Origin: a virus
Lineage: Duplodnaviria; Caudoviricetes
Virus record (IMG/VR): IMGVR_UViG_3300037312_001875
Span: 1 to 64,000 of that record
Length of the DNA stretch: 64,000 nt
Direction: 5' to 3' (one strand)
In this document: positions 1 through 64,000 of the stretch, in pieces
Layout: every line of letters begins with the position of its first letter
Position numbering within the stretch: position 1 is the first letter of the stretch
Position numbers and translations under genes: made by a program
The notes under the pieces: model-generated
Told to the model about the DNA's origin: nothing
Databases searched by the model: none
The model's input: only the letters and a program-made list of their open reading frames with translations

Positions 1-921
1 TTACAAGCCGGTCAATTCATTTGGATTCCCTAAAGCTCGGTATACTTTTCCGAATGGATTGACCAACAAATCGTCTTTGGATGCGACTTTTAATGGAACT
101 AAACACTTTTCATCGCGCAAATGTTTTTGCACAATTCTCTTTGCCATAGATCCATTATTACCAATAAATAAGATCATCCAGTGGGAAATCGGATGCTCAA
201 AACCAACATGACGGTCGTATTTCTTCATGCGCTCCGCATATTTTTCCTCGTTACTTCTATCAAAGAAGTGATTGTATTGATCTATTTTCCCAATAAGCGA
301 TGTGCGACTAGCGTAGGATCTCTCCATCTCCATAAAGACTCCAATGTTATTACTGCTTAATTCACCATCTTTGTCGGGTTTGCCAAGTACCATTATTCCG
401 TCAGGACGAATTTTATGAGATATTGAATCTTTACTACCAACCTTTTTCTCAAAGAATTGGTAGTAGGCTTTTGCTTCTGCAATCCATTCTTTGACCACAA
501 TACCTGAAGCGTGAGTTTCAAAGCTTTTGGCAACTTCCGATAATGTTAATGTGTGTGGATACCAAGGAGGAGGTTGAATGCTCCACTTGGCATTCCAATG
601 CACAGCACCTGTTAGTTGCTCTACATTATCCACTCCAAATTTTTGTAGTGTGTAAACATTAGATGGTCTTTTATGTCCTTCCTTGATTGGCAGGGCAAAA
701 GAAGTGATATACCCTGCCTTTTCAAGTGTGGATAACCTTCTATAATTATTTTTTTCATTATTCCTTTGAAGCCTTTCGATTTCTTCTGGGGCTAATGTTT
801 CTTCGTTTTCGATTTCTAATACGTAAATGTATTTATCGATGAACTCTTTGCTCAGATAAATGAATTTATGCAAATGTAAAAGAAGCTGTCTGTCCTGTTC
901 GTCTAATGGTAAGTACTTCAT
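1..921 (-). CDS. Replication-relaxation (Replic_Relax) family protein, putative relaxase
   Basis: N-terminal wHTH-like RRLSTLEKAGYI, HTLTLSEV, and PD-(D/E)xK-like IRPDG...FMEMER. Directly downstream of a coupling ATPase. Confidence 0.75.
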   Translation of the reverse strand: MKYLPLDEQDRQLLLHLHKFIYLSKEFIDKYIYVLEIENEETLAPEEIERLQRNNEKNNYRRLSTLEKAGYITSFALPIKEGHKRPSNVYTLQKFGVDNVEQLTGAVHWNAKWSIQPPPWYPHTLTLSEVAKSFETHASGIVVKEWIAEAKAYYQFFEKKVGSKDSISHKIRPDGIMVLGKPDKDGELSSNNIGVFMEMERSYASRTSLIGKIDQYNHFFDRSNEEKYAERMKKYDRHVGFEHPISHWMILFIGNNGSMAKRIVQKHLRDEKCLVPLKVASKDDLLVNPFGKVYRALGNPNELTGL

Positions 922-983
922 TGGTTCCCTCCAAAGAGATTTAATTATTGGATGGGAAAGGTGAGACCTAGCGCTTTATCACC

Positions 984-3890
984 TCACAAGAGATCCAAAA
1001 GGCTGCCGCTTTGTTCTTCTTGCATTTTCCGAGCCTTTTCCTGCTCTTCATCTAATGCTCGCTGCAACTCTTCATAATCAAGTGGTTCTGGATCTTCTGA
1101 TTTTTTGATGACCGTAAGCGGATAATCATCCTCACTGTTTTGATCATGACTCGAATCATTCCCTCCACTATCTGTCTTATCCAATAAAGACAGCATTGAT
1201 ACCACATTTTGTTTTGGTGTTTCCATCGTTTCTGCTTCTGGAACTTCTCCGTATAAATAATTGTCAATTTGTTTATCAATCTCTGTAAAGTGCAAACCGT
1301 CATTACTTTGAAGTTCTTTCGCTTTATCCATGGTCCAACGATTAGATTCTGCAATTTTCTTTTTATCTCCAAAGGTAGCTATTTCTCCGTTCGGTAAATA
1401 ACGATCGAGCGGAGGAACTTCTACGACTGTTTGATATGCTTTTTCTACTCCGTCTACATTATCCGTTATTTTTACAACAGCGGTTCGTTTAGGAAGGTTT
1501 CTTAAAAATGCCTCGGAATAAACCGTCTTTTGCTTGCCGTTGCTATCCTCGATAGTGAAAGCAGAAGCGGCAAGCCTCGCATTTTTTGGACCCTGTTTAC
1601 AGACAAATAAATTACCTGTTACCTCTGTTAAAGCGTCAAACAATTCATCCGGTAAGTCGATGATACTTTGCGTGACAGCTCCCAGGGCTAAACCTTTTTT
1701 ACGTTGTTCGCGGACAATGTAAGGGAGGATTGAAGCACGAACTTTATGAGCTTCATCAATACAAAATAGATGTAACAATGGAGTAGATTCCGCGTCCCTT
1801 GTATCTGCAATTCGATAATACAAGTAAGTTAAGTAACTGCCTACTAACGATATCTCTGTCTCACTCATCCCACTAAAATCATAAAGAATAATATATCCTT
1901 CGTCCATCCATTTGCGGAGTGGAAAATTAAAGTTCTTTTGTCCGAACACACGCTTTAAAAACGTATTAGATGAAAAAATGTCTAATCGGTTTAATAAAGA
2001 GATAGCGGAAGCATCAAGCATTCCTTCTGCTTCATTACGCCAAAATTCAACGATATCCCGGTGTTTCCCGGTTTTAGCAAGGCGATCAACGATCGGGTCT
2101 CTAAACTTTGCATTGTAGAGAAGAGGACGAACACCCAAAACGATATGCTGTTCCTCCGTATCGGCCATTAAGGTACGAATTGACATTTTTAAAAGTCTCT
2201 CCGTTTGTGGAGCCGGTTGAAAATAATCTTGTATCACTTTGAAAACTTGATCGGCTGCTAGTTCCTCAGATTCTCCCTCCATTTTGTAAAATAAGTTGAG
2301 CGCTGGAGGAAAATCGGAGTTTCTCCAAGAAACCCATTTTACTTTGTTCCAATTAATTTGGAATCTCGGTTCTCTTCCTTCTCTTTCTGCTGCTTGTTTT
2401 TCCCATACTTCTCTAACCATCAAATTATTCAGCATTAAAAGTGCGGTATCCCTTGCAGGGTCTATAAATGAATAGCCAGCAGACAGCACTTTATTTAGAA
2501 AATCATCATTAAAACTTTTTAAAATCTGATTTAAAAGAGTGGATTTACCCGAACCGTTTTCCCCTGTGAGAACCCAATGTTCACCGATATAACGCGGTAA
2601 CACTCGGACTTCACGATCTTTTATAAACGGATGGAATTGATATCCGAATGGGACTCCGTTCTCATTGGATAGAACATTTTTAGGAAGAAGTTCTCTCCCC
2701 TCAGAATTATGAGGGATTAAGTCTCTTTGTTTTACGACAAGTCCTTCTCCAGTTAAGTGTGGAAAGTGGACGAGATTGGCTAATTCGCTCCCAACCCATA
2801 CCATTCGATAGCGATGCATGGAAGGATAATGAGAAACCGAATGTCTCATCTTCCGATATTTCAAACCATTTACATCCTCCATAAGCCCATCAATCGCTTG
2901 ACCTACACTTTTCAACATCTTAACGCCGGGATAGTGTTCTGTTGCAATGGAAATCGTTACATCAAAAGCAACCTCATTTCCAGAAAAGCGATGATCCCAT
3001 GATTTCAATTCCTCTTTGTCTACAAAGGATCGCTCGTTTGATTTCTTGTTGCTTTTGTTTTCTTTTTGAGCAGCTTCAATTTCTTCCCGCAGTTTTTTGC
3101 CGTTATTCGGGACGAAAGCAATTTGCAACCAAGTATTCGGCTCCATGTTATTTAAAACAATTGGGAGCTTATCGACTTTATACCTGGAGAGCGATAAGGT
3201 TTTATCCATTTTTTTACGGATAAATTTTAATCTCCCTCCCACGGAGTTTCTATTTTTCACCTTGATTTCAAATGGAAGAAATTTAAACTTCTTCTTCTTC
3301 CACATTTCAGGAAATCTTAGTTTGCTTAGTTTATCTGGATCATAAAATTCGACCCGTGAGTAAAGGGATGACCAATGTTTTTTGAAATAGTCAATTCGGT
3401 CTTTTGGTGCTCCCAGGTAAAAACAAATGCTTTCGTCGTCTCCATAATGAATTAAAAAATTGTATCTTTCTTTCCCGAAAATCAAACGGGCGAGAGGTGA
3501 ACGTTTTGATTTGTGAATAATCCTTATGGCCTCACCTAAAGTCTGTGGTGTAACTCCATCTTTAGAATGAGGTAGCGCAAGGCTGTATACATATTTCTTT
3601 TTATTCCACAAATGGGTGAAAATTCCTCTAATCAACAGGAGAATTATCATAAGAAGTGCTGCGACCAATATTTTAGGAAAATAGTAATTTATGATGTTTT
3701 GAATCTTTGTTGTTGGTATGAATTTTGCGAGAAATGGCCGTTGATACAACCACATGTATACAAATAATGAAGGGATGATGACTGCGGACATGATGCTAAT
3801 TTGTTTGCGATTCTCCCAAGCTGACTTAAAGAACTCCTCCATTTGTTTCTCTACTTGGTCGTCAAATTTGCTTCGTTTTATAGTTCCCAC
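984..3890 (-). CDS. VirD4/TraD-like type IV coupling ATPase
   Basis: Two N-terminal TM segments, Walker A GENGSGKS, Walker B LFCIDEAH, TQS motif, acidic C-tail. GTG start with GAGGTG SD. Confidence 0.75.
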   Translation of the reverse strand: MGTIKRSKFDDQVEKQMEEFFKSAWENRKQISIMSAVIIPSLFVYMWLYQRPFLAKFIPTTKIQNIINYYFPKILVAALLMIILLLIRGIFTHLWNKKKYVYSLALPHSKDGVTPQTLGEAIRIIHKSKRSPLARLIFGKERYNFLIHYGDDESICFYLGAPKDRIDYFKKHWSSLYSRVEFYDPDKLSKLRFPEMWKKKKFKFLPFEIKVKNRNSVGGRLKFIRKKMDKTLSLSRYKVDKLPIVLNNMEPNTWLQIAFVPNNGKKLREEIEAAQKENKSNKKSNERSFVDKEELKSWDHRFSGNEVAFDVTISIATEHYPGVKMLKSVGQAIDGLMEDVNGLKYRKMRHSVSHYPSMHRYRMVWVGSELANLVHFPHLTGEGLVVKQRDLIPHNSEGRELLPKNVLSNENGVPFGYQFHPFIKDREVRVLPRYIGEHWVLTGENGSGKSTLLNQILKSFNDDFLNKVLSAGYSFIDPARDTALLMLNNLMVREVWEKQAAEREGREPRFQINWNKVKWVSWRNSDFPPALNLFYKMEGESEELAADQVFKVIQDYFQPAPQTERLLKMSIRTLMADTEEQHIVLGVRPLLYNAKFRDPIVDRLAKTGKHRDIVEFWRNEAEGMLDASAISLLNRLDIFSSNTFLKRVFGQKNFNFPLRKWMDEGYIILYDFSGMSETEISLVGSYLTYLYYRIADTRDAESTPLLHLFCIDEAHKVRASILPYIVREQRKKGLALGAVTQSIIDLPDELFDALTEVTGNLFVCKQGPKNARLAASAFTIEDSNGKQKTVYSEAFLRNLPKRTAVVKITDNVDGVEKAYQTVVEVPPLDRYLPNGEIATFGDKKKIAESNRWTMDKAKELQSNDGLHFTEIDKQIDNYLYGEVPEAETMETPKQNVVSMLSLLDKTDSGGNDSSHDQNSEDDYPLTVIKKSEDPEPLDYEELQRALDEEQEKARKMQEEQSGSLLDLL

Positions 3891-4262
3891 TTATTTCACC
3901 TCGGTTACATTAATGAGGGAATGAGTGAGTGGACTGGGGATGAGTAGACAGATACTTACGTCTTGTATTGAGTTGTCAAAGGACGGTTGAGGCGAGCAGT
4001 TGAGATGGGTTGCCGCGCCCCCAAAATGGGTGAAGTTTAGAAGAAATCTGTTCCCGATGAATACCAAATTTGAAATTTGGTCTTCACGGAAAAGAATTGA
4101 AATTTCCTCTTGATGTCAGTATAGCCTAATAATGGTAATTTTGGCAAGGACTTTTTGAGAAATTTATGCGGAATCTTTTTAGGTATTTTCTGCACAAATT
4201 TCTCATATGATTCATTATATATTCCACAATAAAATCTCATTAGGACAGAAGGGGTGCTTGTC

Positions 4263-4409
4263 ATGTCAAAAAAGCAGCGTTTTTTCATTGAAGAAAGGAT
4301 CAAATTTATGGAGCTGTGTGTTCAAATTGCCAAAACATCAGAGGATGTTGAGTACTTTACGATGGAATTATTTAACCTTCAAAGAAGAATTATTGGCAGC
4401 CAGGGATGA
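4263..4409 (+). CDS. Small hypothetical protein (48 aa, not in ORF track)
   Basis: AGGGGTG SD; translated by hand MSKKQRFFIEERIKFMELCVQIAKTSEDVEYFTMELFNLQRRIIGSQG. Resembles the 37237-37395 ORF. Confidence 0.5.
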   Translation: MSKKQRFFIEERIKFMELCVQIAKTSEDVEYFTMELFNLQRRIIGSQG

Positions 4410-4454
4410 ATGATCTGGAAGAGATGTTGAGAAAAGGTACCAGTCTATTGTTCA

Positions 4455-4514
4455 TGTATACAAAAAAGCATACATAAATGTATACAAATCCCAACGCATA
4501 CAATTTTGTATACA
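4455..4514. repeat. ATAC/TGTATACA array upstream of the parM-like gene (centromere- or operator-like)
   Basis: TGTATACA at 4455, 4479 and 4507, interleaved with GCATACA at 4468 and 4496. ATAC cores are spaced 12, 12, 16, 12 bp. Confidence 0.55.
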
Positions 4515-4548
4515 TTTAAATTTAAAAAAACGAGAGGATTGATTTTTC

Positions 4549-5691
4549 ATGGTAAACCGGATTGCTGCTATTGATGTTGGAAATGATTCTATAAAAGCTA
4601 TTTTTGGAAATTTAGAGTACGAATTGAATATCCCAAATATCATCGCAAGGGATACAGCGGAACGTCCAATCATCGGGATCGAGGAGATAAATAGTAAAAA
4701 TCCATTGGAGGGTATTCACGTTAAAGTCGTTTCTCCAGCATTAAAAGAAAACAATATGATCTATCGTGTGGGGAATTTAGCAACTAAAAGTGATAATGCA
4801 ACGGAGCTAGATCCTGGGAGCTGTAAATCAGATGAGGACCAAACATTGGTGATGTTATTTACGACTCTTGCTTTAGATGCAGTAAGAGAAGAAAATTTCA
4901 ATCAGTTTAAACGGTCTGAAAATATCGTTAATGCTCATTACACATTAGGAACCGGTCTTCCTCTTCGTGAAATAAAAGAAGGGAAAGATGTAAGTTATCG
5001 GTCGAGATTACTTGAGTCCACTCACCAGATTGAGTTTCTTGTTACGCCAAAATATCAGGGATTAAAGGTTAATATTAGATTCAATGAAGTAAAAGTCTAT
5101 CCAGAAGGATTTGCAGCCTTTATCAATCTTGTTATGGATCATGACTTAAAAATTATTAATAAGGAATTAATTGATAAACGAATTTTGATTCAGGATATAG
5201 GTGGCTTATCTACAGATATTGCTGTTATTAAAAACCGCAATGTAGATGACGATAAAGCACAAGGTTTTAACCTGGGGGTATCAGAGGCATTGGAAGCAAT
5301 CAGAGAGGAAATTAGAATTCAGCATGGGGTTGAATTAGACAGTCGCAGGGATGTAGTTGAACTCCTAACCAGAAAACAGGATCGCCATCACATTATGGTC
5401 AAAGGAAAAAAAACGAGTGTTCACCCTATCGTTGATCGCATTCTCATGGATTTAGCGAAAAAGGAATACCGACTCTTACGTAATATCTGGGCAAAGAACT
5501 CTCAAACGGAAGTCTGTTATTTTGTCGGTGGCGGTGCTAACATCCTAAAGGATTATTTGAAGACGATAAACAGTAATTTAGATGACTACAACATTGAGTT
5601 TTTCGATGATGAAAAAGAAAGTATTTGGATGATGGCCAATGCTTATTCTAAATTAATAAAGGAATACTCTAGAAGACAAAAAAAGAAATAA
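4549..5691 (+). CDS. ParM/StbA-family actin-like ATPase
   Basis: Phosphate-1 IDVGND, connect VYPEG, phosphate-2 QDIGGLSTD, adenosine FVGGGA. Confidence 0.85.
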   Translation: MVNRIAAIDVGNDSIKAIFGNLEYELNIPNIIARDTAERPIIGIEEINSKNPLEGIHVKVVSPALKENNMIYRVGNLATKSDNATELDPGSCKSDEDQTLVMLFTTLALDAVREENFNQFKRSENIVNAHYTLGTGLPLREIKEGKDVSYRSRLLESTHQIEFLVTPKYQGLKVNIRFNEVKVYPEGFAAFINLVMDHDLKIINKELIDKRILIQDIGGLSTDIAVIKNRNVDDDKAQGFNLGVSEALEAIREEIRIQHGVELDSRRDVVELLTRKQDRHHIMVKGKKTSVHPIVDRILMDLAKKEYRLLRNIWAKNSQTEVCYFVGGGANILKDYLKTINSNLDDYNIEFFDDEKESIWMMANAYSKLIKEYSRRQKKK

Positions 5692-5696
5692 ACATT

Positions 5697-5725
5697 AAGG
5701 ATCGCCAGATGGCGGTCTTTTTTTT
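5697..5725 (+). terminator. Intrinsic terminator
   Basis: AAGGATCGCC-AGAT-GGCGGTCTTT followed by a T-run. Confidence 0.7.
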
Positions 5726-5734
5726 GATACAATA

Positions 5735-5750
5735 TAGTAAAATAGTCCTA
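5735..5750. promoter_or_regulatory. 16-bp dyad box (virion-gene regulon)
   Basis: TAGTAA-AATA-GTCCTA; 15/16 identical to the copies at 63092 and at 46399 (reverse complement). Confidence 0.6.
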
Positions 5751-5770
5751 TTGAAAAAGGATGTGGAATT

Positions 5771-7621
5771 GTGAAATTCAATAACCTGCATGATATGGAG
5801 GAATTCATTTCTAATTTGAGTTCGGGGAGTGGAGGTATCCAAATCGATGATGAATCCACTACCAGTACGATTGAAACCTGGTCAGCGAAAAAAATAGCGA
5901 CTGAGATATCGACGATAAAGAATGATACAGCGAATCTAACCAGCGGAATGACTAACATACGACAATACAATGTGTTAGGAGACGATTCTATTGGTGACAG
6001 TGACACCATTCAAGCAATGATTAACCAAAAGCGTCAAGAGATTTTGACGTTTGGGTTTTCTAAACAGAATACCGTGGATGTTCCAAGTGGTAAGTACATT
6101 ATTGATAAGGAGATAAAAATGTCCCCTTATTTGAAATTAAAAGCATTGGGTAACGTGGAATTTGAGTTGCAGTTTAATGGGACCGCTTTTTGGATCTCAC
6201 CTAGTATTGGAGATCCCATCTATGGCAACAACGATGCGACTAAGCCGATTCATTTGCGCAAAAACGTTTGGACACGTGGAAAGTATTTTGACGGTTCAAA
6301 TGGAACATTTACGTTTACAACCACCTTGAACAATGATTCGACTGGCAATAATACGATTGCAATTGAAATTGGGGATCGTGACATTGCCAGCAATCAAGCT
6401 CTACCTGTTTCGAGATATGTAATTGAGAATGCCAATGTGTATGGGCTTCATGCGGCAATTAAACATAACTCTATCAATAATTACATTGGAACTTTCAAAC
6501 ACTGTCATTGGGAACTGAACAATCACGCCATTTGGGTAACCAGTCCGACGCCAGGAAAGCAGTACAATTCGGGAGAAAACTTCAATTACGACAACTGTAT
6601 TATTGCTGGATGCAAGAAACCTGCTGTATATGTAGATGCTGCCGGCCATGACCAGACGTTTAATCATTGTTCCTTCGACTTCAACAGCTCCCCCCTCTTT
6701 TATTCCACTCATTCAGGAGTGAGCACAAGATTGGATCATTGCTACATTGAAAAAGTAGGTGATTGGTTTGGAGTAGGCGAGCAGTTGATTTATAAAGCCG
6801 AGTCCACCTTGGATGCGGAGAGCTGGGGGAGAAATTCGTTCTACATCAACAACTTGATTGTCTACTTAAAACGTCCAACCAAACTTTTCACGAATCTGCC
6901 CAACCCATCTGGCGGTCGAATCAGACTCTATTTAGATATTGATGGGATGGAGACGAGATATGACAACTATGATCCATACGATATTGACAACCGGTTCATG
7001 GTGGACGATGAGAACGAGAATATTCGTTTGATATCCCGTAAAGTTATCAATACGAATTCGATTGCCAAAAACCATGTATCGAGGAGCGGGAATCTCGTAA
7101 GAAATGGCGATTTTGAGGAATCGATGGTGGGAACCTATTTGACAATGGCCAATAAGGAAGCGGACGGGTCTTGGTATTGCTCCTATCATGACAGTGTAAC
7201 CGGCCCCATTATCACCCAAGAAGGATTAAAGGGTTCTAAGTGCCTCCGATACAATATCGTTCGCCCGGACAACGTGTTAAAAGTCGAATATAAGGGTTTG
7301 ATTCCCGTGGAACCCGGGGAAATGCTTAATCTATCTGCTCTCTTTTTGTTAGATAAAGTGAGTGCCAGGAACGAGATTAAGTATCGATTCAGTTGGTATG
7401 ATGCCATGGGTAACTGGATGTACGATTTTGACTATTTGGAAATATTTAGTGAAAGCAGTGATGTGACGGCACAAGACGGAACTAAATTCCGAACGTCTAG
7501 AAGTCACGCCCTGCTCTTTGTCCCAAAATACGCAGCAAAGGTCAAACCTGCCGTTATTACTGGAAACATCGATGCTGACTATATCCTCATCGATGACATC
7601 CACTTTTCAAAATCTAAATAA
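5771..7621 (+). CDS. Tailspike-like beta-helix depolymerase with C-terminal CBM-like domain
   Basis: Pectate_lyase_3-like start (NIRQYNVLGDD...DTIQAMIN...VPSGKYII), TWSAKKI fibre motif, C-terminal NLVRNGDFEES. Confidence 0.7.
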   Translation: MKFNNLHDMEEFISNLSSGSGGIQIDDESTTSTIETWSAKKIATEISTIKNDTANLTSGMTNIRQYNVLGDDSIGDSDTIQAMINQKRQEILTFGFSKQNTVDVPSGKYIIDKEIKMSPYLKLKALGNVEFELQFNGTAFWISPSIGDPIYGNNDATKPIHLRKNVWTRGKYFDGSNGTFTFTTTLNNDSTGNNTIAIEIGDRDIASNQALPVSRYVIENANVYGLHAAIKHNSINNYIGTFKHCHWELNNHAIWVTSPTPGKQYNSGENFNYDNCIIAGCKKPAVYVDAAGHDQTFNHCSFDFNSSPLFYSTHSGVSTRLDHCYIEKVGDWFGVGEQLIYKAESTLDAESWGRNSFYINNLIVYLKRPTKLFTNLPNPSGGRIRLYLDIDGMETRYDNYDPYDIDNRFMVDDENENIRLISRKVINTNSIAKNHVSRSGNLVRNGDFEESMVGTYLTMANKEADGSWYCSYHDSVTGPIITQEGLKGSKCLRYNIVRPDNVLKVEYKGLIPVEPGEMLNLSALFLLDKVSARNEIKYRFSWYDAMGNWMYDFDYLEIFSESSDVTAQDGTKFRTSRSHALLFVPKYAAKVKPAVITGNIDADYILIDDIHFSKSK

Positions 7622-7754
7622 AAACAACAACCAATAGGGGTGAGCGTTCATGGAAAGAGAAGGTTCGTTTGCAGTAGGATGTTTTTGGGGAATTTTGATT
7701 TCCATTCCGTTGTGGATCATCTTGTTTGGTTTAGTTGCTTTAATAGATTAACAG

Positions 7755-7782
7755 AAAAAGAAGCCCCGAGGGGCTTCTTCTA
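7755..7782. terminator. Bidirectional terminator between convergent genes
   Basis: AAAAAGAAGCCCC-GA-GGGGCTTCTTCT. Confidence 0.7.
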
Positions 7783-7914
7783 TTTGATTAAATCAATTCG
7801 ACCTTTTAGGGTTAGGTACGCATCAATGCCTTTTTTTAATTCTGGGCGTTTGACAATGACCTCAAGATAAGTGAATGCGCCATCGATGATCCGCTGTCCC
7901 ATATATTCCGCCAT
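7780..7914 (-). CDS. Small phage tail-associated protein (44 aa, not in ORF track)
   Basis: MAEYMGQRIIDGAFTYLEVIVKRPELKKGIDAYLTLKGRIDLIK. TGATG overlap with the upstream gene. Typical small Firmicutes fibre-locus protein. Confidence 0.65.
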   Translation of the reverse strand: MAEYMGQRIIDGAFTYLEVIVKRPELKKGIDAYLTLKGRIDLIK

Positions 7915-8195
7915 CAGCTCATTCCCCCCATGATCATGTCGTCGAGCGCCTTCTGGACGAGGGTGAGTCTTTCTTCCAAGCTCGGCTTACTCAAACGCTG
8001 TTGGCGTTCTTTGATAAGAAGCGCCTCGTACACGTTATCTCTGACTAACTGTTTTCTCTGGTAACGAAACACCAGAGGATTCCTTAATACTTCGTGGTCT
8101 TCCACGACCTCCACTTCAATTTCCTGTTCCATGCTGCGTGTCGTGGCAATACCGACGACACGTCCCTCTTCCTGCACGTGGATATATGCTTTCAT
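7914..8195 (-). CDS. DUF2977-like tail fibre accessory/chaperone
   Basis: Size, position after a tailspike and the C-terminal LEERL..VQKALDDMIMGGM pattern. Confidence 0.55.
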   Translation of the reverse strand: MKAYIHVQEEGRVVGIATTRSMEQEIEVEVVEDHEVLRNPLVFRYQRKQLVRDNVYEALLIKERQQRLSKPSLEERLTLVQKALDDMIMGGMS

Positions 8196-8208
8196 GTTCC
8201 TTCCCCCT

Positions 8209-10248: not shown

Positions 10249-10265
10249 AAAATGTCACCTCCCTA

Positions 10266-10532: not shown

Positions 10533-10559
10533 GCATATCCCTCCTAATCTGTGATTTTA

Positions 10560-53934: not shown

Positions 53935-54181
53935 AGTAATCCCTCCGGAAAATCTATATATAGTATTGCATCGTTTGTGCACTCACAATAAATTGTGGTT
54001 TTGTGGTAATATGAGGATGGCTCGGATTGTTAACCCCGATCTGAAGTTCCCCGTTGTTTTAACTTTGGGAAGCAATAGCGCGTGCTTTTGCTTCTCCTTT
54101 TTTTGTTTCTATATTTCTATATTACATGATAATGGTATAATGGTCATAGGACAAAAAGGAAGAAGAGAGAGGTTTTTCGTC

Positions 54182-54499
54182 ATGGGGTTAACTGGAGAGT
54201 GGGTTAAGGGACCGTTTTTGTGTACCACCATTGAGGGTTTTGTTTTGGAAGTATCGAATGGGTATTGCAAAATTATTGTCAAAAAGATGGACGATGTTGA
54301 GGAATACCTGCCACCACGTTTACAAATAGGTTCTGTTCATTACTTGCCTTTGAGAGTAATAGAAGAGTTTTATATACATTTTAATTTCGACCAACAATCA
54401 TCGTTGATCGAAACGGCTCAAATGTTGGATGACTATCATTGGGTAGCTGAGCTGAAAGAGCAATTCTATAATCCGTTTATTAGCAAACAAATTATTTAA
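54182..54499 (+). CDS. Hypothetical protein, IDEAL-like C-terminus
   Basis: GAGG SD; LIETAQMLDDYHWVAEL. Confidence 0.5.
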   Translation: MGLTGEWVKGPFLCTTIEGFVLEVSNGYCKIIVKKMDDVEEYLPPRLQIGSVHYLPLRVIEEFYIHFNFDQQSSLIETAQMLDDYHWVAELKEQFYNPFISKQII

Positions 54500-54514
54500 A
54501 AGGGGAATTTATCA

Positions 54515-54964
54515 ATGATGAATCGTGTTGTGCTTGTTGGCCGTTTAACAAAAGATCCAGATTTGCGTTATACACCAAATGGGGTTCCTGTTGCCACCTT
54601 TACTCTAGCGGTCAATCGTCCTTTTGCTGATCAATCCGGTGAGAGGCAGGCAGACTTTATCAACTGTGTGGTTTGGCGTAAACCAGCGGAGAACGTATCA
54701 AATTACCTTAAAAAAGGTTCGCTTTGTGGAGTCGATGGACGAATTCAAACAAGGAATTACGAAGGTCAAGATGGTAAACGTGTTTACGTTACAGAAGTTC
54801 AAGCAGAAAGCGTACAATTCTTAGAAACAAAGAGTAACAATGGATACCAACCACCAATGGAGCCGCCCCCAGAACGTGGCGGCACAAATCAATATAACAA
54901 GAATAGTGATCCATTCGCCGGAAGCGGAAATATTGACCTTGGCGAAGATGATCATCCATTCTGA
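54515..54964 (+). CDS. ssb: Single-stranded DNA-binding protein
   Basis: [21 protein letters not shown]...[14 protein letters not shown]...[14 protein letters not shown]; acidic DDHPF tail. Confidence 0.95.
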
Positions 54965-55050
54965 TGACAACCCACCGTACAAGCGGTGGGTTTTTTGATA
55001 TATTGATAATAGGTAATTTATCATAGGACTAAAGAAGGAGGTTGAGGGAA

Positions 55051-57459: not shown

Positions 57460-58169
57460 TGATCAATCGATATTCCAATCAGAATCATGCGGTTCATCGA
57501 AAAGAAAATGATTTAGAGAAGATCGCCAGTGTTTATGACAAAATGAGCATTTCCAATCGTGTAAAAGAGGAGAAGGAATTGTCTTTCTCTTCTCTACATC
57601 CTTTTGAATCTGAAGGTGTTCTTTCTATTATGAAAAAACAAGCGTCGGAATTAGAAGAGTTAGAGATGGAGAAAAAAGCGAATCCTTTTGAGGTATTCGG
57701 AGGGGCAAAACATTATATTTCTTCCAAACTGGGTGTGGGAGATGATATGGCTCATAACCTTGCTTCTACTGTATTATCGAGAGCTCAAGACCTTTCAAAC
57801 GTTTACGGCGGCAATGTCAATGATATGGTCACAGGGATTGTCGACAATATGGATAAAAATGAAATCCACACTCGCTTAGGTGTGGTTCCAATGAGACCGA
57901 TGAGTCCGCAAGAGACGGAAGATGCCGTGGAGCAACAACTGATGGCCGCATTTCATTTATCTGCGGTAGATGTCGCTCATTACAAAAAAAATGTTATGGA
58001 TCAGGCTCGTAACTTATCTGTCCTGCACAGACAAAATGAGATATCCGACATTGCGGCTGCCATTATCAAAGTGTTAGTAACTCATCAGGACATTACATTG
58101 GTCAATAACATTTCATCATCTGCTGCACTTAAAAAAGAAGTTGAAGCGCATTTGGCTCAAGGGCAGTAG
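57459..58169 (+). CDS. Putative internal head protein
   Basis: LEKIAS, MKKQAS and MEKKAN motifs; in the head operon. Confidence 0.55.
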   Translation: MINRYSNQNHAVHRKENDLEKIASVYDKMSISNRVKEEKELSFSSLHPFESEGVLSIMKKQASELEELEMEKKANPFEVFGGAKHYISSKLGVGDDMAHNLASTVLSRAQDLSNVYGGNVNDMVTGIVDNMDKNEIHTRLGVVPMRPMSPQETEDAVEQQLMAAFHLSAVDVAHYKKNVMDQARNLSVLHRQNEISDIAAAIIKVLVTHQDITLVNNISSSAALKKEVEAHLAQGQ

Positions 58170-58181
58170 GAGGGAACCGTC

Positions 58182-59390
58182 ATGGAAGAACAACGATTAT
58201 TTGGTGATAAGCCTTTTATGGAAAAAGAGGCGTTGGAACTGAACCCTAGAGCCATCATAGGTGCGCTTAAAGGGGCAGGAAATCTGTTTAGAAGAACACC
58301 TAGAGAACCACAAGCAGGGGGAATGGGGAAATTCGTTCATAACGCAGGTGAATCTACCGTTAATCCTGAAAATGTGAGAATGTTCGATGAAGCAGAAGTG
58401 CAAGAAAGGGCGAGGAAAGAAAGTTTAAAGTCCGGAACGGGAAGCTTCGTTAGCGATGCTTTATTGGGAATCACCAAAAGAGTAGTGCCTAAAACAAAGG
58501 AACCGATTGAAAATTTTGTTGGCAAGGCAAAAGAAACGATTGAGGGATGGGATACAGCAGCTGGGAAAGTGCTATCAGGAAAAAACCCTGATTCTTTAAG
58601 GGGAAAATTATTCTCTTCTAAAGTGGGCCGACAAGTGGGAGAAATCACAGAAGATGGTTCGACAGATCCATTAATGAGGGAAGGAAGAAGACCGTCTTTG
58701 ATTGCGCCTATCGAAAATACGGTAAAGGTAACGACGCCATTTTTGGCTACCGCTTATGTTGCGGATAAGTTATATCCACCGAACAAACAACAAGAAAGCA
58801 CCCTTCCCCCATACGAGGATAATTTGCAGAAGACATCTTATTTCGATGAGTCTTTCATGGAACAAATGGATAAAATCGCTTCCATGCAGAAGATTGCGGA
58901 ATTGGAAGAATGCCTTAACCATGCTGAAACTGAGTTGGAAAAAGTGGCAATGGAAAAGACAGCGGTGGAAAAAAGACTCGAAAACACCATAAGGGAAAAA
59001 GAATCGTTAGAAAAACGAGCAAGCCTAGCGGAAGAAAATCTACTGGAAAAAGTTGCGGAGTTCGAGGAACTTCGGTTAAGGACGATTGCGAAAGAACGCT
59101 CTAAGGTGGCTGTCGAACTAGCAGAACAGTTGTTAGAAGCTGGGATTGTCAAGCAAGCTCATTTAAATGATACAATCGACAATCTTATGGAGTGCGACGA
59201 AGGTACTATAAATATGTATTCTAATATGGTTAAAGAAGGAAAAAGACAGGACGAAAGTCTTGAAAGTTTAGCATTTTTAAGCGAATATAAGAGTAATGAT
59301 AAACTAGTCTCGAACTCTGATGGGACTTCTGTACTATCTAAAAGAGGTCAAACTATAGGGGAAGCGGCTAGGGATCTCAACAAACGATAA
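58182..59390 (+). CDS. Scaffold-like coiled-coil head protein
   Basis: Long Glu/Lys heptad region with repeated EKxA; upstream of the capsid genes. Confidence 0.6.
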   Translation: MEEQRLFGDKPFMEKEALELNPRAIIGALKGAGNLFRRTPREPQAGGMGKFVHNAGESTVNPENVRMFDEAEVQERARKESLKSGTGSFVSDALLGITKRVVPKTKEPIENFVGKAKETIEGWDTAAGKVLSGKNPDSLRGKLFSSKVGRQVGEITEDGSTDPLMREGRRPSLIAPIENTVKVTTPFLATAYVADKLYPPNKQQESTLPPYEDNLQKTSYFDESFMEQMDKIASMQKIAELEECLNHAETELEKVAMEKTAVEKRLENTIREKESLEKRASLAEENLLEKVAEFEELRLRTIAKERSKVAVELAEQLLEAGIVKQAHLNDTIDNLMECDEGTINMYSNMVKEGKRQDESLESLAFLSEYKSNDKLVSNSDGTSVLSKRGQTIGEAARDLNKR

Positions 59391-59411
59391 ATGACAAGGA
59401 GGAATAGACCG

Positions 59412-59855
59412 ATGGCTCTAGCGCAAACAAATTATTTCCAAAATGCTCACAGACTCGATCGCCCAATTGCCGCTGCTGTTACAAACATTCAACCAGGACA
59501 GTTGTTCCAATTAAACGCAAACGGTGAATTCGAAGTAGCTGATGGTACTAAAAAAGCGTATCCAACACTTAACTCTCGTTTTCCAGGGCAAGGGTTAGGA
59601 CGTCAAGGTGAAAGATTAGAAGGACGCGACGATGTAAGCCGTTCTGGACGTATCGCGGTTCTTAAAGGGAACTTTGAAATCGGTACTGACCAATACGATA
59701 AGACAAAAACATTCGCTTATGGCGCTCCAGTAGTACCAGGTGCAGGAGGAAAAGTAATTCCTTTTGTTGAGGGTACTCACAAAGTACAAAACATTGTAGG
59801 TCATGTAACCCATGTTCCGACTGACGCTAGCGATATGATCCGCTACGAAGGTTAA
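59412..59855 (+). CDS. Capsid decoration/cement protein
   Basis: Size, beta-rich composition and position immediately before the MCP. Confidence 0.6.
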   Translation: MALAQTNYFQNAHRLDRPIAAAVTNIQPGQLFQLNANGEFEVADGTKKAYPTLNSRFPGQGLGRQGERLEGRDDVSRSGRIAVLKGNFEIGTDQYDKTKTFAYGAPVVPGAGGKVIPFVEGTHKVQNIVGHVTHVPTDASDMIRYEG

Positions 59856-59885
59856 TAGATAAAAAGGGAAAAGGAGGAATATACA

Positions 59886-60803
59886 ATGCCAATGTCAACA
59901 CCACGTATGAACGGTGAACTTCGTGAAGAAGAGTTAGAGCTTCGCGAACTTCTATCATCTCCAACCGGTTTTGAACGCTATGCGTCAGAAAAAATGCCGG
60001 AATTTATTCAAGTTGTACGAGATTACGAGGGCTTTGTCCGTGACGTTCTTATGGTCACTGAAGTTACTCCCGAAGACCTTGTTCGTGTAGACGAAGAAGT
60101 ATTTGTCGTTTACTCGAAAGACGTTGATGCAACAGCATCCGTTATCGCTCGTTACGGCGAAGCGCCTACTCTAATGGTTAAGGGTACTACCGTGAAGGTA
60201 ACCTTCTTCCCGGTTACAACTCCACGCTTAACTATTACTCAGTGGGATCTCGACACTCAACCATACGATTTAATGCGTCGTACTCAAGAGAAGGCGGGCC
60301 AAGAGCTTTCTAAGTTAGAAGACAGAACTTTCTTAGATGCAATTGACGGCCTAATCGAATCTCCTGAAGCTGGTGGTAAGCAGCAAGTTACTCAAACTGA
60401 AACTGCTATCACTAAAGCTGGTATGTTAGCAATCAAGCAAATTTTCAGCCGTAACAACGTTGCGTTCTCATCTTATCTAATGCACCCAGCTACTTATGAT
60501 AGCTTCCTATTATGGGGCGAGGCTGAATTAGATCAATTCACCCAACGCACTGTCTTGGAAACTGGCCAGCTGCCTACGATTTGGGGTGGCTTGAAGATGA
60601 TCACAGGTATGATGATTCCTGAAAACTACGTTTATGGTCTTGCTCCGAAGGAGATTCTAGGTCGTATGCCAATCCTTCGTGATGTGACGATTGACGTACA
60701 ACGAATCCCTCAGACACAGGATAAGGAATTGTTGGCTTACGAGTACATCGGCATGTACATTCACAGCCATTTAGCGGTTTCTCGACTTGAACTTGCATCC
60801 TAA
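59886..60803 (+). CDS. Major capsid protein (HK97 fold)
   Basis: 305 aa; QELSKLEDRTFL helix, YLMHPATY, MIPENYVY.LA, YEYIGMYI; followed by a strong terminator. Confidence 0.75.
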   Translation: MPMSTPRMNGELREEELELRELLSSPTGFERYASEKMPEFIQVVRDYEGFVRDVLMVTEVTPEDLVRVDEEVFVVYSKDVDATASVIARYGEAPTLMVKGTTVKVTFFPVTTPRLTITQWDLDTQPYDLMRRTQEKAGQELSKLEDRTFLDAIDGLIESPEAGGKQQVTQTETAITKAGMLAIKQIFSRNNVAFSSYLMHPATYDSFLLWGEAELDQFTQRTVLETGQLPTIWGGLKMITGMMIPENYVYGLAPKEILGRMPILRDVTIDVQRIPQTQDKELLAYEYIGMYIHSHLAVSRLELAS

Positions 60804-60857
60804 TAAAATATCATTCTAGTCCGCCGCCATTTGACTGGTACTAACGGCGGGTCAACC

Positions 60858-60890
60858 AAACGAGGCGGAACCTAATCCGCCTCGTTTTTT
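60858..60890 (+). terminator. Intrinsic terminator after the MCP
   Basis: AAACGAGGCGGA-ACCTAA-TCCGCCTCGTTTTTT. Confidence 0.8.
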
Positions 60891-60917
60891 AGTTAATAGA
60901 AAAGGAGAAGATTAATC

Positions 60918-61238
60918 ATGGCAAAAGACCTATGTTCATTAGTCATTGTGAATTTAAAAAACATTACGAGGATTGTCGGTAATAACATTGTTCCTGCAAA
61001 AGGCAGTACGTTAGTTCATTTTAGAGATTTAAACCAATTGAAGTTGGCTCTTAAATTGCAAGAGAATAATAGAATCGTGATTCAGTCAGAAATCCCTGCT
61101 GATCTCTTAGCAAAAGTTGATCCTGTCTTTTCTATGCAACAAGCGGTTGAGCCTGTTGTAGAAGAAACGCCGGTGGAAGAAGTACCAGTAGAAGAAGAAG
61201 TGAAACCGAAAAAGCCACGTACAAAGAAAAATCAATAA
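60918..61238 (+). CDS. Small head-associated protein, homologous to the N-terminus of 10659..13904
   Basis: 20/59 gapless identity to that N-terminus; low-complexity VEEVP/KPKKPRTKK tail. Confidence 0.65.
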   Translation: MAKDLCSLVIVNLKNITRIVGNNIVPAKGSTLVHFRDLNQLKLALKLQENNRIVIQSEIPADLLAKVDPVFSMQQAVEPVVEETPVEEVPVEEEVKPKKPRTKKNQ

Positions 61239-61262
61239 GCAATAGAAGTGAGGTGTGTGGTG

Positions 61263-61712
61263 ATGGCTGTAACAACGGAACCGATGATCACCTATGTGAG
61301 ACGATTCAGAGGGAAAATTCTGGACACCGACCCCATGTTAAATACGTTAAACGATAGCAAATTAGAATTTACGGACGACCAAATTGCTGGGTGGATTGAA
61401 GAGGCTTGGTACTACATAAACGAATCTGCCCCTCCCACCCGATATAGCTTAGAACAGTTTCCAAGGACCGCCCTCCTTTTGGATGGCGCCATGATGATGA
61501 TGATGGAGGCAAGAGGGCTATTGCATTTAAGAAACCAGATCAGTTACAGCGATGCTGGTTTTAGTGTAAACATGGACGATAAATCTGGAATGTATGCTCA
61601 ATGGATGTCGAATAAAGCGAGTTTGTTTTTATCAGAACTCAAAGCCTTTAAAAGATCACGTCCTCCTGGGTTCATTGGAGTGGCTAGTCCTCTATCGTGG
61701 TGGCGTGTATGA
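61263..61712 (+). CDS. Head-tail adaptor/completion protein
   Basis: FTDDQI, LLLDGA and NQISYSDAGFSV pattern; position after the MCP. Confidence 0.6.
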   Translation: MAVTTEPMITYVRRFRGKILDTDPMLNTLNDSKLEFTDDQIAGWIEEAWYYINESAPPTRYSLEQFPRTALLLDGAMMMMMEARGLLHLRNQISYSDAGFSVNMDDKSGMYAQWMSNKASLFLSELKAFKRSRPPGFIGVASPLSWWRV

Positions 61713-62452
61713 AAATATATGTTACCTCTTTAACCGAACTGTACATTGAATGGTCTATTCAGGGAGAAGAATTTGAACTCTCAAGGTCGACCTCTCCTGA
61801 TAGCGAATTTGAGCCTGTTGCCATCCATCACCCTCAACCATTTTTTGTGGATTACGACGTTAATCTATTTGATGAAAATGTCCGATATTACTACAAAGTG
61901 ACAGGGTTTATTGATGGAAAAAAGGTAGCAGAAGATGGTCCGGGAACACTAGAGTACAACTCTCGTGACAATGTGGCCAATAAAGTGATTCATGAATCCA
62001 AAGTCGTCCTTCGGATGATGAACAACCCGCCCGTTTACTTTTTGTTGAAGCGGAGAGTCGGCTATTCTTGCTCGGAATGTTGGAATCCTATCACGAAAAG
62101 AGTCAGTTATGCGAACTGTCCGGTTTGTAATGGAACGGGAATCATGGATGGATATCATGCTCCCATCCCATCAAGGGTATCTCAAGATGTATCACAACTG
62201 ACAATGGCATCTGGGGAGATGGATAGTGATCGAGTGAGTTTATCACCCATTCGGGCATGGACGACCAATACGCCTTTACTATATCCAGAGGACATATTAG
62301 TCGATGTATTGAACCAAAGGTACAAAATCATGAATGTCGCTCGAAGAACCCGCTCGAATTCGGTCATCCGTCAAATCATTGACTTGGCACCTTTGGATAA
62401 GGGTCATCCTTGTTATCAGGTGGAAGTGGATAGGACGGTGAAACCTGTATGA
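61709..62452 (+). CDS. Neck/head-closure protein with zinc finger
   Basis: CSECW...CPVCNGTG...GY; position in the morphogenesis operon. Confidence 0.6.
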   Translation: MKIYVTSLTELYIEWSIQGEEFELSRSTSPDSEFEPVAIHHPQPFFVDYDVNLFDENVRYYYKVTGFIDGKKVAEDGPGTLEYNSRDNVANKVIHESKVVLRMMNNPPVYFLLKRRVGYSCSECWNPITKRVSYANCPVCNGTGIMDGYHAPIPSRVSQDVSQLTMASGEMDSDRVSLSPIRAWTTNTPLLYPEDILVDVLNQRYKIMNVARRTRSNSVIRQIIDLAPLDKGHPCYQVEVDRTVKPV

Positions 62453-63102
62453 GTGAGCGAACAATTTTCCCGGATTTAAAGTTATTTAAAAAGACCGTAA
62501 CCGAACATTTCTTATTGTCATTGCAAGAGATTTATAGGATTCATCCGGTCTACCCCTATACCGATGACGAGTCTCCATATACCTCGATTCATATTAGTCC
62601 AACATACGCCAATATCACCTATGATAGCCTGCGCCCTCAGCTATTAGTGAAAGTGGGTCAGTATGATATGGCGTTACAAGATACACTTGGTAACAACTTA
62701 TATGAAGAGATTAGAAATGATGACGATGTAATTGGGGGTTATCGCTCCCTTAAAAATCTATCGACGATGGTTACAGTTATGGTTCGAGCATTTGCGGAAG
62801 AGGAATCTTCGGATATTGCGGACGAATTAGCGGTTTTAGGTGTGTATGCAGCTCACCATATGTTTGCGCAAATGGGGCTGAATATCAGAGGCTCCTCTGT
62901 CTCTGAAACGGTTAAAGTGGACAATCAAAATGATTACTTTCAGACCAACGTTAATTTTCAAGTGGATGTTCCTTGGCAATTCACAACCGTTAATCGTTCG
63001 GGAGCTACTAATCCGGACTGGGAAACGACCATTCCAGAAGATTTTATAGGCGTGTATCGTATGCCGGGTGTGTATGTGCATCCTAAAAAACTAGTAAAAT
63101 AG
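62449..63102 (+). CDS. Putative tail terminator protein
   Basis: Position directly before the sheath gene; alpha/beta composition. Confidence 0.5.
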   Translation: MSERTIFPDLKLFKKTVTEHFLLSLQEIYRIHPVYPYTDDESPYTSIHISPTYANITYDSLRPQLLVKVGQYDMALQDTLGNNLYEEIRNDDDVIGGYRSLKNLSTMVTVMVRAFAEEESSDIADELAVLGVYAAHHMFAQMGLNIRGSSVSETVKVDNQNDYFQTNVNFQVDVPWQFTTVNRSGATNPDWETTIPEDFIGVYRMPGVYVHPKKLVK

Positions 63103-63151
63103 TCTTATAAAAACAAGGTAATTGCATCTTTCATTTGGTGCATAAGTCCTA
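63092..63151. promoter_or_regulatory. Two 16-bp dyad boxes upstream of the sheath gene
   Basis: TAGTAA-AATA-GTCTTA at 63092 and TGGTGC-ATAA-GTCCTA at 63136. Confidence 0.55.
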
Positions 63152-63199
63152 TAAAAGCTATAAAATTAGATTAATAGTTGATTAAAGGAGGGAAAACGG

Positions 63200-64000
63200 A
63201 TGGCAAACAGTTATCGTGCACCGGGTGTGGACGTATTAATCGAGCGTCAACAACTGGAGCAAAAGAGTACGGAAACAGCCTTTTTGCCTGTATATATTGG
63301 AACGGGTATTACTTCACGCGTTCGTAATATCAAAAAAACAGATGTTGAAGCTGATGTATCAGCTTTTCCAGTCGTCACGCTTACTTTTGAATTAACAGGT
63401 GATATAAACACTGATTTGTTCGAGGACACGAAATTTACTTTAGGCCAAGTCGTGGTATCTAGAGCGAGTGGCGGCGGTTCCGCTGTGGCATTAGAACCTT
63501 CGTCAGGGTATTCCGTTGAAAAGGATATTTCTTTTTCTGAAAGCGAAGGCGCTGCGACCTATGTGTTAAAAATCCTCGATGGTTCATTGTCAGCCGCTGA
63601 TACGGCTTACGAACTAAATATTACAGCTGAAAATTCAGATGATGATTTCCAATTAAGATTAGTGGGTTCTGAAGATCGTTTCTTCTCGCAAGATCTATTT
63701 GGTCCAGTCATCCTTGAGGAGAATGGCAAGCAATTCTTTAATGATATTGCTATTGCTGTCGAGATTGCTTTCCGCATGAATGTTCCGAGCTTCTTCTACT
63801 TAGAAGTTCCTCGAAACTATGGGGAATTGCCAACAAAGGATGATTACTCTACCGCCATTGAACAGGCTTATTACTACAACGATGCTTATCGGTTGGTCCC
63901 TTTAACCTTTGACCCAGAGGTGGCTAGTGCGTTAAACGGCTTTGTATCTGGTGTAAGTAACCCACTCGATAGGCGCGAAACGGTAGGATTCATTTCCTAT
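63200..64000 (+). CDS. Contractile tail sheath protein (3' truncated by window; not in ORF track)
   Basis: AAGGAGG SD; MANSYRAPGVDV...PVYIGTG sheath-type N-terminus; SNPLDRRETVGF near the window end. Confidence 0.75.
   Translation, partial: MANSYRAPGVDVLIERQQLEQKSTETAFLPVYIGTGITSRVRNIKKTDVEADVSAFPVVTLTFELTGDINTDLFEDTKFTLGQVVVSRASGGGSAVALEPSSGYSVEKDISFSESEGAATYVLKILDGSLSAADTAYELNITAENSDDDFQLRLVGSEDRFFSQDLFGPVILEENGKQFFNDIAIAVEIAFRMNVPSFFYLEVPRNYGELPTKDDYSTAIEQAYYYNDAYRLVPLTFDPEVASALNGFVSGVSNPLDRRETVGFISY

Follow-up and report, generated by a model that had tools for sequence, protein, structure and literature searches.

Horizontal gene transfer is regarded as having two alternative vehicles, phages and conjugative plasmids, and classifiers assign each element to only one of them. 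Phage-plasmids such as P1, N15 and phiVP882 (Pfeifer et al. 2021, as cited in PMC12282955) combine a virion gene set with a plasmid initiator and partition genes and lack a chromosomal integration module; phiVP882 also has a communication-controlled lysis–lysogeny switch. A 2025 review states that complete conjugation machinery has not been found in any phage-plasmid, a 2025 preprint reports only sporadic type IV secretion system (T4SS) domains in putative phage-plasmids, and PMC12282955 describes phage-plasmids that lost phage mobility after gaining cargo and acquired origins of transfer (oriTs). Conjugation and phage gene sets on one DNA molecule are known from composites (PMC12934698; SegMantX preprint), namely Hodor conjugative megaplasmids with embedded prophages, the fused E. 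coli 'conjugative phage-plasmid' p1002-1 and Streptococcus tandems of a phage and an integrative and conjugative element (ICE). Here we describe an element that includes a 64,000-nucleotide window (the whole stretch of DNA analysed, positions 16626-80625 of the 116,043-bp IMG/VR virus record IMGVR_UViG_3300037312_001875, hereafter the contig). All source data are short-read metagenome assemblies from soil and rhizosphere. Our analysis suggests that the element is probably both a temperate jumbo myovirus and a plasmid, that is, a phage-plasmid with a complete resident conjugation operon, which may spread as virions and by conjugation.

Like the phage-plasmids above, the element carries virion genes, a plasmid initiator and partition genes with no integration module, and it shares with phiVP882 a communication-controlled switch, here of the arbitrium type. 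It differs from them in having a full T4SS, a type IV coupling protein (T4CP) and a relaxase, in being far larger, and in having a backbone of lytic-looking large-myovirus type. Its conjugation genes match in set and order the systems of ICEBs1, Tn916 and pCW3 (Tcp) type, which belong to the mating-pair formation (MPF) classes MPF_FA/FATA, and those of 30-60-kb Bacillus, Paenibacillus and Priestia plasmids. In contrast to all of these, the operon is embedded in a phage genome of 203 kb and has neither an integrase nor an excisionase as a neighbour, its relaxase is MOB_C and not MOB_T, and its coupling protein is VirD4-like and not TcpA/FtsK-like. Hodor, p1002-1 and the phage–ICE tandems are made of discrete parts that were recently joined or embedded. 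What is new here relative to known composites is a phage-plasmid with a resident conjugation system, in which the modules are interleaved, have no integrase boundary and are conserved between lineages.

The window lies on a circular map

We found that the window is about one third of a single replicon with a circular map of 203,131 bp (GC 39.9%). This map is a composite of overlapping contigs, built from the contig, a second IMG/VR record of 83,839 bp (G003) from its position 308 to its end, and 3,556 bp of Ga0395903_0000154. G003 carries the left arm of the element. At its beginning, 307 bp coincide with the right end of the contig at 99% identity; at its far end, 127 bp coincide with the start of a 79-kb contig (L049) that covers contig positions -3682 to 75335. 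The left junction is spanned over 11,263 bp, with two mismatches, by a 60.4-kb contig from another sample (G004/L050), the right junction is bridged by a Logan contig, and a 47.8-kb contig extends from the VirB6-like gene to the giant fibre gene. Exact-protein look-ups showed that identical sequence and joins recur in independent JGI and Logan assemblies from several soil and rhizosphere samples. Coverage was assessed with contigs and not with reads, so that depth, ends and uncovered stretches carry no weight. Assembly breaks recur near contig 1-1.5 kb and 116 kb.

The 116,043-bp record is classed as linear and 29% complete by CheckV, and no terminal repeats were found in it. The completeness figure implies a genome of about 400 kb and probably derives from two phage G-like genes; completeness estimates of this kind, as well as virus/plasmid binning, misjudge such hybrids. 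Searches for close relatives returned little: in megablast searches, 25-kb pieces matched neither PLSDB plasmids nor INPHARED phages, profile and protein scans of genome contigs (VirB4; TerL profile) gave no relative, a TerL-profile scan of metagenome contigs returned unrelated samples only, and a VirB4 scan of viral contigs returned nothing.

The conjugation operon

A reading of the window made from its letters alone (the sequence-only reading) had noted a relaxase and a VirD4-like ATPase, had seen no VirB4, and had proposed searching the complete contig for VirB4, a terminase, an integrase and circularity. VirB4 is indeed missing from the window, but it lies on the same contig 1.8 kb upstream of the window start. 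The terminase was also found, the map is a circle of about 203 kb, and the only recombinase is of a small tyrosine type.

The two genes at the edge of the window are the head of a tight 12-gene operon whose remainder lies beyond it (Table 1). Intergenic gaps range from -31 to +62 bp and internal stops are absent. The operon includes the coupling protein, relaxase, TcpC, TcpE, VirB4, a VirB6-like protein and a cell-wall hydrolase in the order of ICEBs1 and Tn916, with the 968-aa ATPase and the relaxase first. The 968-aa protein has two N-terminal transmembrane (TM) helices, a Walker A motif (GENGSGKS) at residue 443, a Walker B motif and an invariant DE at 712. Some of its homologues, which NCBI lists under the name T4SS conjugative DNA transfer protein, contain PF12696. 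Because a sequence-profile search of the PDB with the T4CP family matched only P-loop regions and was uninformative, a fold search was needed. In an AlphaFold2 model (pLDDT 78.9), Foldseek aligned TrwB at a target-normalised TM-score of 0.64-0.67, and Cag-beta also matched. Motifs, homologues and predicted fold together qualify the protein as a putative type IV coupling protein.

The relaxase candidate matches PF13814 at 42.5 bits (cut-off 25.3; E = 9.6e-11), a family that has been equated with MOB_C and linked to VirD4-type coupling proteins (PMC5357655). Its RPDG...EME(R/K) motif, which resembles PD...ExK/R, is kept in three lineages. By CONJscan logic, which identifies a Gram-positive MPF_FA/FATA system by a co-localised relaxase, T4CP, VirB4 and type-specific MPF genes, the protein qualifies as a relaxase with predicted nicking activity, and all four components were found together. 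By predicted function, the element has all the protein classes that define a self-transmissible Gram-positive conjugation system.

The operon is conserved in other lineages. A diverged sister lineage from other samples (L074/L075) has the same layout of fibres (Gp80, Mtd_N)-Alp7A-T4CP-relaxase-TcpC-72-aa-TcpE-VirB4-162-aa-593-aa-193-aa-hydrolase. Comparison of 12 orthologue pairs between the element and this lineage gave 57-91% amino acid identity, dS of 0.5-1.3, dN/dS of 0.06-0.28 and no internal stops; Alp7A is 91% identical with a dN/dS of 0.057. These ratios indicate that the transfer genes are under purifying selection. Because the sister lineage keeps the layout with such ratios and without internal stops, both decay of the transfer genes, which the sequence-only reading had named as a possible refutation, and a one-off chimera are ruled out. 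In a third lineage (VirB4 62% identical), the operon lies between Phage_rep_O and YopX-type genes and the flanks are non-homologous, which suggests that the operon acts as a module moving among phage-like genomes.

A divergent control region separates the operon from alp7A. We consider its TGTATACA palindromes to be a candidate Alp7 centromere or operator, and an 18-nt inverted repeat just upstream of this region (4156-4205) to be a candidate oriT or operator.

Plasmid maintenance and lysis–lysogeny genes

The window encodes a plasmid-type replication initiator whose N-terminus is 40-56% identical to RepA and replication proteins of 60 Bacillaceae plasmids (tblastn). Three of the four perfect DnaA boxes in the window fall within 240 bp upstream of rep, and iteron-like 24-nt repeats (family D2) lie within the gene at 32589-32698. 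Two partition systems are present, an Alp7A-type actin-like ATPase and a Walker-type ParA, and an inverted 22-nt Ter-like pair (I6) precedes the gene for the replication terminator protein RTP. The left arm encodes an arbitrium-type AimR (Table 1), followed by a 56-aa secreted-peptide open reading frame (ORF) with an N-terminal hydrophobic segment and the C-terminus ...TTYGDPGGW; we regard it as a candidate pro-peptide of AimP, unusual in its mature end.

The plasmid half of a phage-plasmid is thereby represented by Rep, DnaA boxes, iterons, ParA and Alp7A. The map is circular, without host flanks and without a large integrase, and in the assembly of a Priestia megaterium isolate a relative forms a contig by itself. 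The only recombinase on the element is a tyrosine recombinase of 180-214 aa that lies 95 kb from the conjugation operon; no integrase or attachment (att) site was found beside the operon. Since the element combines AimR/AimP, Rep with its DnaA boxes, two partition systems and RTP with a Ter-like pair, and has no large integrase, its gene content points to a temperate, plasmid-borne lifestyle.

The phage backbone and its relatives

On the 203-kb map we found the virion set expected of a phage-plasmid, namely TerL, portal, major capsid protein (MCP), sheath, tube, tape measure protein, baseplate, fibres, holin and endolysin. Long ORFs for virion, packaging and RNA polymerase (RNAP) functions are intact (2241, 2057, 1617, 1143, 677 and 551 aa). 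Left of the contig start lie, in order, a MazE antitoxin, two Phage_rep_O proteins, AimR and the 56-aa ORF, a sigma factor, a holin, helicases, a fused RNAP, portal and TerL. Matches to Pfam, PHROG and NCBIfam thus bear out the observation in the sequence-only reading that sheath, capsid and fibre genes coexist with a rep/DnaA-box origin, two classes of partition ATPase, RTP, a relaxase and a VirD4-like ATPase, all of them intact.

A capsid gene search identified two complete, uncultured IMG/VR phages of about 175 kb, G001 (IMGVR_UViG_3300036802_000112, with a direct terminal repeat) and G002 (3300036783_000180). In their structural modules the gene order follows that of contig 71-100 kb, at 28-69% identity, and G003 1.7-65 kb is collinear with G001 from 124 down to 59 kb. 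Because collinearity extends into both arms, the phage backbone flanks an arc of about 85 kb on both sides. This variable arc holds, interleaved, the arbitrium genes, the conjugation operon with Alp7A, fibres, rep and RTP, an FtsK cassette, a backbone ParB-like gene, and DndB with ParA. A third syntenic backbone relative is the stand-alone P. megaterium contig (JBCNIQ010000015.1, 175,244 bp; isolate assembly GCA_050482865.1). Across the three relatives, the shared collinear backbone includes TerL (63-64% identical), portal (55-64%), RNAP (48-49%), MCP (68-69%), sheath (47%), baseplate and SSB. G001 and G002 are about 28 kb smaller than the element (174-175 kb against 203 kb). They gave no match to its conjugation proteins, Rep, RTP, Alp7A, FtsK or ParA, no match to Pfam AAA_10, TcpC, AAA_31 or Phage_integrase, no tblastx match to the AimR region and no tyrosine recombinase.

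The fused RNAP joins beta (Rpb2) and beta' (Rpb1) in a single 2241-aa ORF. As it is 48-49% identical to ORFs of G001 and G002 and a 2239-aa version occurs on the P. megaterium 175-kb contig, the whole phage lineage encodes a fused multisubunit-type RNAP. The T4CP is up to 63% identical, and VirB4 43-54% identical, to Priestia and Bacillus plasmid proteins, with P. megaterium supplying the closest named homologues (T4CP 63%, VirB4 54%). To judge by these similarities and by the syntenic P. megaterium contig, the host is most likely Priestia or a closely related member of the soil Bacillaceae.

Proposed mode of propagation

We propose that the backbone (terminase, portal, capsid, sheath, tube, tape measure, baseplate, fibres, holin/endolysin, helicases, fused RNAP and sigma factors) came from the ~175-kb phage lineage. 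Its variable arc would have gained a plasmid maintenance set (the RepA-like initiator with DnaA boxes and iterons, ParA with a ParB-like protein, Alp7A, and RTP with Ter-like sites), the arbitrium AimR/AimP lysis–lysogeny switch, the ICEBs1/Tn916-style conjugation operon and extra receptor-binding genes. The prophage would replicate and partition as a low-copy plasmid. In this plasmid state the relaxase would nick oriT and the coupling protein would feed single-stranded DNA into the T4SS, so that the whole prophage would move by cell contact and could reach cells without the phage receptor. Upon induction the element would package itself and exit as virions. The sequence-only reading had suggested either a dual-mode element or a repurposed DNA translocation system, and the gene content, with a complete T4SS and a plasmid replicon on the same circle of about 203 kb as the full complement of virion and packaging genes, favours the former. 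The stricter proposition, that the element truly makes infectious virions as well as conjugating through its own T4SS and was derived from a lytic-type 175-kb lineage by stepwise module capture, is one that we advance tentatively, as a possibility with somewhat less than an even chance. If true, conjugation would free host range from tail-fibre specificity, which would explain a prophage reaching hosts that its virion cannot infect; both machineries being intact under selection would mean that the two strategies can be combined; and the conversion of a large lytic-type phage lineage into a plasmid could be tested on this element.

Several observations weigh against the phage-plasmid reading. 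The circular map leans partly on the short overlaps of 307 bp (99%) and 127 bp, each of these junctions being crossed by longer contigs too, and all data come from bulk soil and rhizosphere metagenomes. One low-depth Logan contig supports a joint from contig 1420 to 15544 (window -15205 and -1081; depth 2.2, with 21 nt on one side) that skips 14.1 kb including VirB4, the VirB6-like gene and the hydrolase, and in one sample (JGI 3300037467) contigs end at 873 and 15723, close to the two sides of this joint. The 1420/15544 joint showed neither direct repeats nor att-like sequences. These contigs hint that variants without most of the MPF genes may co-exist with the element. None of the T4CP models of Pfam and NCBIfam scored above threshold on the 968-aa protein, and the repeat search for an oriT on the element yielded candidate inverted repeats only. 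The late-operon motif TAGG-N8-CCTA is absent from the conjugation operon, and so there is no sign that its regulon controls the operon. Finally, the map is about 16% larger than the complete 175-kb relatives and might exceed the capacity of the capsid.

Alternative explanations

The size of the element bears on the alternative that it is a former phage and now mainly a conjugative plasmid, in which a gain of about 30 kb of plasmid and conjugation DNA made the genome unpackageable and left the virion genes recently stranded or yielding only a defective particle. The precedent of phage-plasmids that ceased to move as phages once they had gained cargo (PMC12282955) and the difference between 203 kb and 174-175 kb speak for such a history, whereas the long virion, packaging and RNAP ORFs are all intact, the sister lineage also keeps fibre genes beside the operon, and the arbitrium switch is retained; we consider it unlikely.

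Similarly doubtful is the idea that the T4SS is not for self-transfer and instead mobilises other DNA, mediates cell contact or killing, exports material during infection, or is selfish cargo that gives the host a conjugation service. The oriT is a candidate only, the motif of the virion operons does not precede the conjugation operon, and the latter behaves as a swappable module, missing from G001 and G002 and set in unrelated phage-like flanks (Phage_rep_O, YopX) in the third lineage. However, a relaxase and a coupling protein kept under purifying selection together with channel genes are a signature of DNA transfer and not of protein secretion.

The phage-plasmid reading also has to be set against the possibility, improbable in our view, that a conjugative plasmid or ICE is adjacent to or cointegrated with a separate prophage, as in Hodor or p1002-1, or that the assembly is chimeric: such composites exist (PMC12934698; SegMantX preprint) and the short-read assemblies break repeatedly near contig 1-1.5 kb and 116 kb, but plasmid modules lie at no fewer than three places among phage genes, at contig 8-22 kb (conjugation and Alp7A), 48-56 kb (rep/RTP) and 64-66 kb (ParA), with fibre genes and the backbone ParB-like gene between them, so that the two module types alternate at least three times with no integrase flanking either, and the same joins occur in JGI and Logan assemblies and in the diverged lineage, contrary to the separate elements or chimera that the sequence-only reading had named as a refutation.

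The FtsK cassette is a phage module

The window contains a second cluster that the sequence-only reading had described as M23-XRE-VirB2-like-VirB6-like-FtsK and taken as conjugation-like. The genes are there, but those for the membrane proteins and FtsK follow the order of gp195-gp199 of the virulent Priestia phage BM15 (tblastn E values of 1.8e-4, 6.6e-9, 7e-53, 7.5e-5 and 1e-135), with the 419-aa multi-pass protein corresponding to gp197 (7e-53) and the ATPase to gp199 (1e-135). Full-length homologues of the FtsK protein, at 35-37% identity, occur in 240 Bacillus phage records, including those of virulent Herelleviridae. We therefore rejected this cluster as a second conjugation locus, since the five-gene cassette is common to virulent Bastille-type phages, and with it the argument for a dual-mode element from two coupling-type ATPases in split loci falls away. 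By its similarity to these phages, the cassette is one of the ordinary modules of large Bacillus phages, and it provides no evidence of conjugation; entry into the forespore, also raised in the sequence-only reading, is pure speculation. The Bastillevirinae (Herelleviridae) that share the cassette, such as BM15, Bcp1 and BCP78, carry in addition genes for a ParM-type actin and a small integrase-like protein, which in BM15 lie near the cassette. Unlike the element, these SPO1-like phages are virulent, their structural module is unrelated, and they have neither a T4SS nor a plasmid Rep.

Table 1 Features of the element. Positions refer to the window unless the contig, G003 or L063 is named; HTH, helix-turn-helix; LRR, leucine-rich repeat.
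Feature	Position	Strand	Evidence
T4CP (VirD4/TrwB-like), 968 aa	984-3890	-	TM helices, Walker motifs, homologues, fold
Relaxase candidate, MOB_C-type (Replic_Relax, PD-(D/E)XK), 306 aa, second operon gene	1-921	-	PF13814
Operon part beyond window, TcpC through hydrolase	contig 7997-16614	-	
TcpC (VirB8-like), 352 aa	upstream of window, within contig 7997-16614	-	TcpC 1.3e-35
72-aa protein	within contig 7997-16614	-	2 TM helices
TcpE, 147 aa	within contig 7997-16614	-	TcpE 1.4e-9
VirB4, 860 aa	contig 12284-14866	-	AAA_10 5.9e-61, 206.9 bits (cut-off 27.5); Walker A GATGKGKS
164-aa protein	within contig 7997-16614	-	
VirB6-like, 598 aa, 7 TM (CD3337/EF1877-family mobilome membrane protein)	within contig 7997-16614	-	NF046089 6.3e-70
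186-aa protein	within contig 7997-16614	-	
CwlT-like hydrolase, 490 aa	within contig 7997-16614	-	SLT+M15+NlpC/P60
Divergent control region, conjugation operon/alp7A	4304-4548	.	TGTATACA palindromes; repeat families D1, I1, I2, I7
Alp7A-type actin-like segregation ATPase	4549-5691	+	Alp7A_like_C 7.9e-31, ALP_N 3.9e-11
Two beta-helix/pectate-lyase-like proteins, 616 aa (+) and 679 aa (-)	5771-10248	.	Beta_helix, Pect-lyase, NosD
Fibre-like metallophosphoesterase (1081 aa) and CotH/LRR giant (2057 aa)	10659-20089	+	65% and 59% identical to phage G gp352 and gp353; Pfam
Fibre/tailspike cluster: Gp80 fibre, 939-aa, Mtd_N-headed proteins, 805-aa tailspike	20385-30949	+	Gp80 3.5e-46; phrog_2234 tail spike 2.5e-35
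Plasmid-type replication initiator Rep, 443 aa	31995-33326	-	tblastn to plasmid RepA
Three perfect DnaA boxes upstream of rep	33438-33677	+	motif count
Response regulator (receiver and LuxR/GerE HTH)	38145-38813	-	Pfam 3.2e-30, 1.5e-19
RTP region including Ter-like pair (RTP gene proper 39094-39489)	38945-39489	+	RTP 1.4e-41
M23 peptidase (40401-41045) and XRE-type regulator (41254-41700)	40401-41700	+	Pfam
Bastille-type membrane/FtsK cassette: 72-aa TM, ~180-216-aa 2-TM, 419-aa 5-TM, 45-aa and 39-aa peptides, 756-aa FtsK/SpoIIIE-like ATPase (44053-46323)	41943-46323	+	FtsK_SpoIIIE 8.7e-43
ParB-N-like protein, phage backbone	46385-47053	+	68-72% identical to G001/G002; weak ParB matches
DndB-like protein (47179-48357), ParA (48380-49246), 103-aa putative adaptor	47179-49514	+	DndB 1.3e-30; AAA_31 4.8e-36
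Nucleotide metabolism/SSB block: dUTPase, ThyX-like, thymidylate kinase (-), SSB	50996-54964	.	SSB 60-66% identical to G001/G002
Virion module start: 805-aa head protein (protease-like N-terminus), 236-, 402- and 154-aa proteins, MCP, four head/neck proteins, sheath	55042-64000	+	collinear with G001/G002
Major capsid protein	59886-60803	+	phrog_2522 major head 4.1e-21
Tail sheath	from 63200, past window end	+	25% identical to phage G gp178
Fused beta-beta' RNAP, 2241 aa	G003 47470-54195 (also L063 13218-19943)		
AimR (arbitrium-type)	G003 70250-71605	-	PF22871 8.8e-50

Other features of the element

The remaining features are listed with the above in Table 1. The two beta-helix proteins are probably depolymerase tailspikes, and homologues of the fibre/tailspike cluster were found in the fibre region of G001. 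Pfam was uninformative for most of the head and neck proteins. A search for tRNA genes in the window and across the 203-kb composite gave none.

A phage G-like jumbo phage (Donellivirus) was the reading first adopted, because of the gp353 match and the CheckV completeness of 29%. It was rejected, as only 12 of the 124 contig ORFs match phage G, two of them at more than 45% identity. The gp352/gp353 homologues are 59-65% identical and the capsid, sheath, baseplate and protease 25-38%; no others match at E<1e-5, and the tape measure is much shorter. The phosphoesterase fibre and the CotH/LRR giant are thus near phage G while the remaining genome is unrelated to it, as if a host-interaction cassette had passed horizontally between large phages that are unrelated but share a host group. 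Phage G itself (NC_023719.1, 89194-93336) encodes gp155, annotated as a VirB-like type IV secretory pathway protein, and the MsbA-like gp156, neither of which is detectably similar to the T4SS genes of the element.

The short tyrosine recombinase (180-214 aa; contig 114990-116043 and G003 1-800) adjoins distal fibre genes. Its region shows strain-level indels around a repeated GCAAGNCCCTTCGGGGTCTT hairpin, and all assemblies break within about 2 kb. The enzyme could be a dimer-resolution recombinase or could act on an invertible segment.

The DndB-like gene stands between the backbone ParB-like gene and ParA, and no other dnd genes were seen. Its product may be a ParB/DndB-family partner of ParA and not a modification protein.

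Two repeated motifs were also found. The dyad TAGG-N8-CCTA occurs nine times in the contig, against 1.3 expected, with all copies between 37 and 103 kb (36952, 41560, 45127, 50161, 67196, 80609, 96889, 101713 and 102763) and most of them preceding fibre and virion operons; the 84-kb left arm has a single occurrence. Between rep and the response regulator (window 35003-37658), five copies of a promoter-like repeat of about 50 nt (TTTNNTAATTATGAAAATAGAAAAAGAG...) each precede small minus-strand genes.

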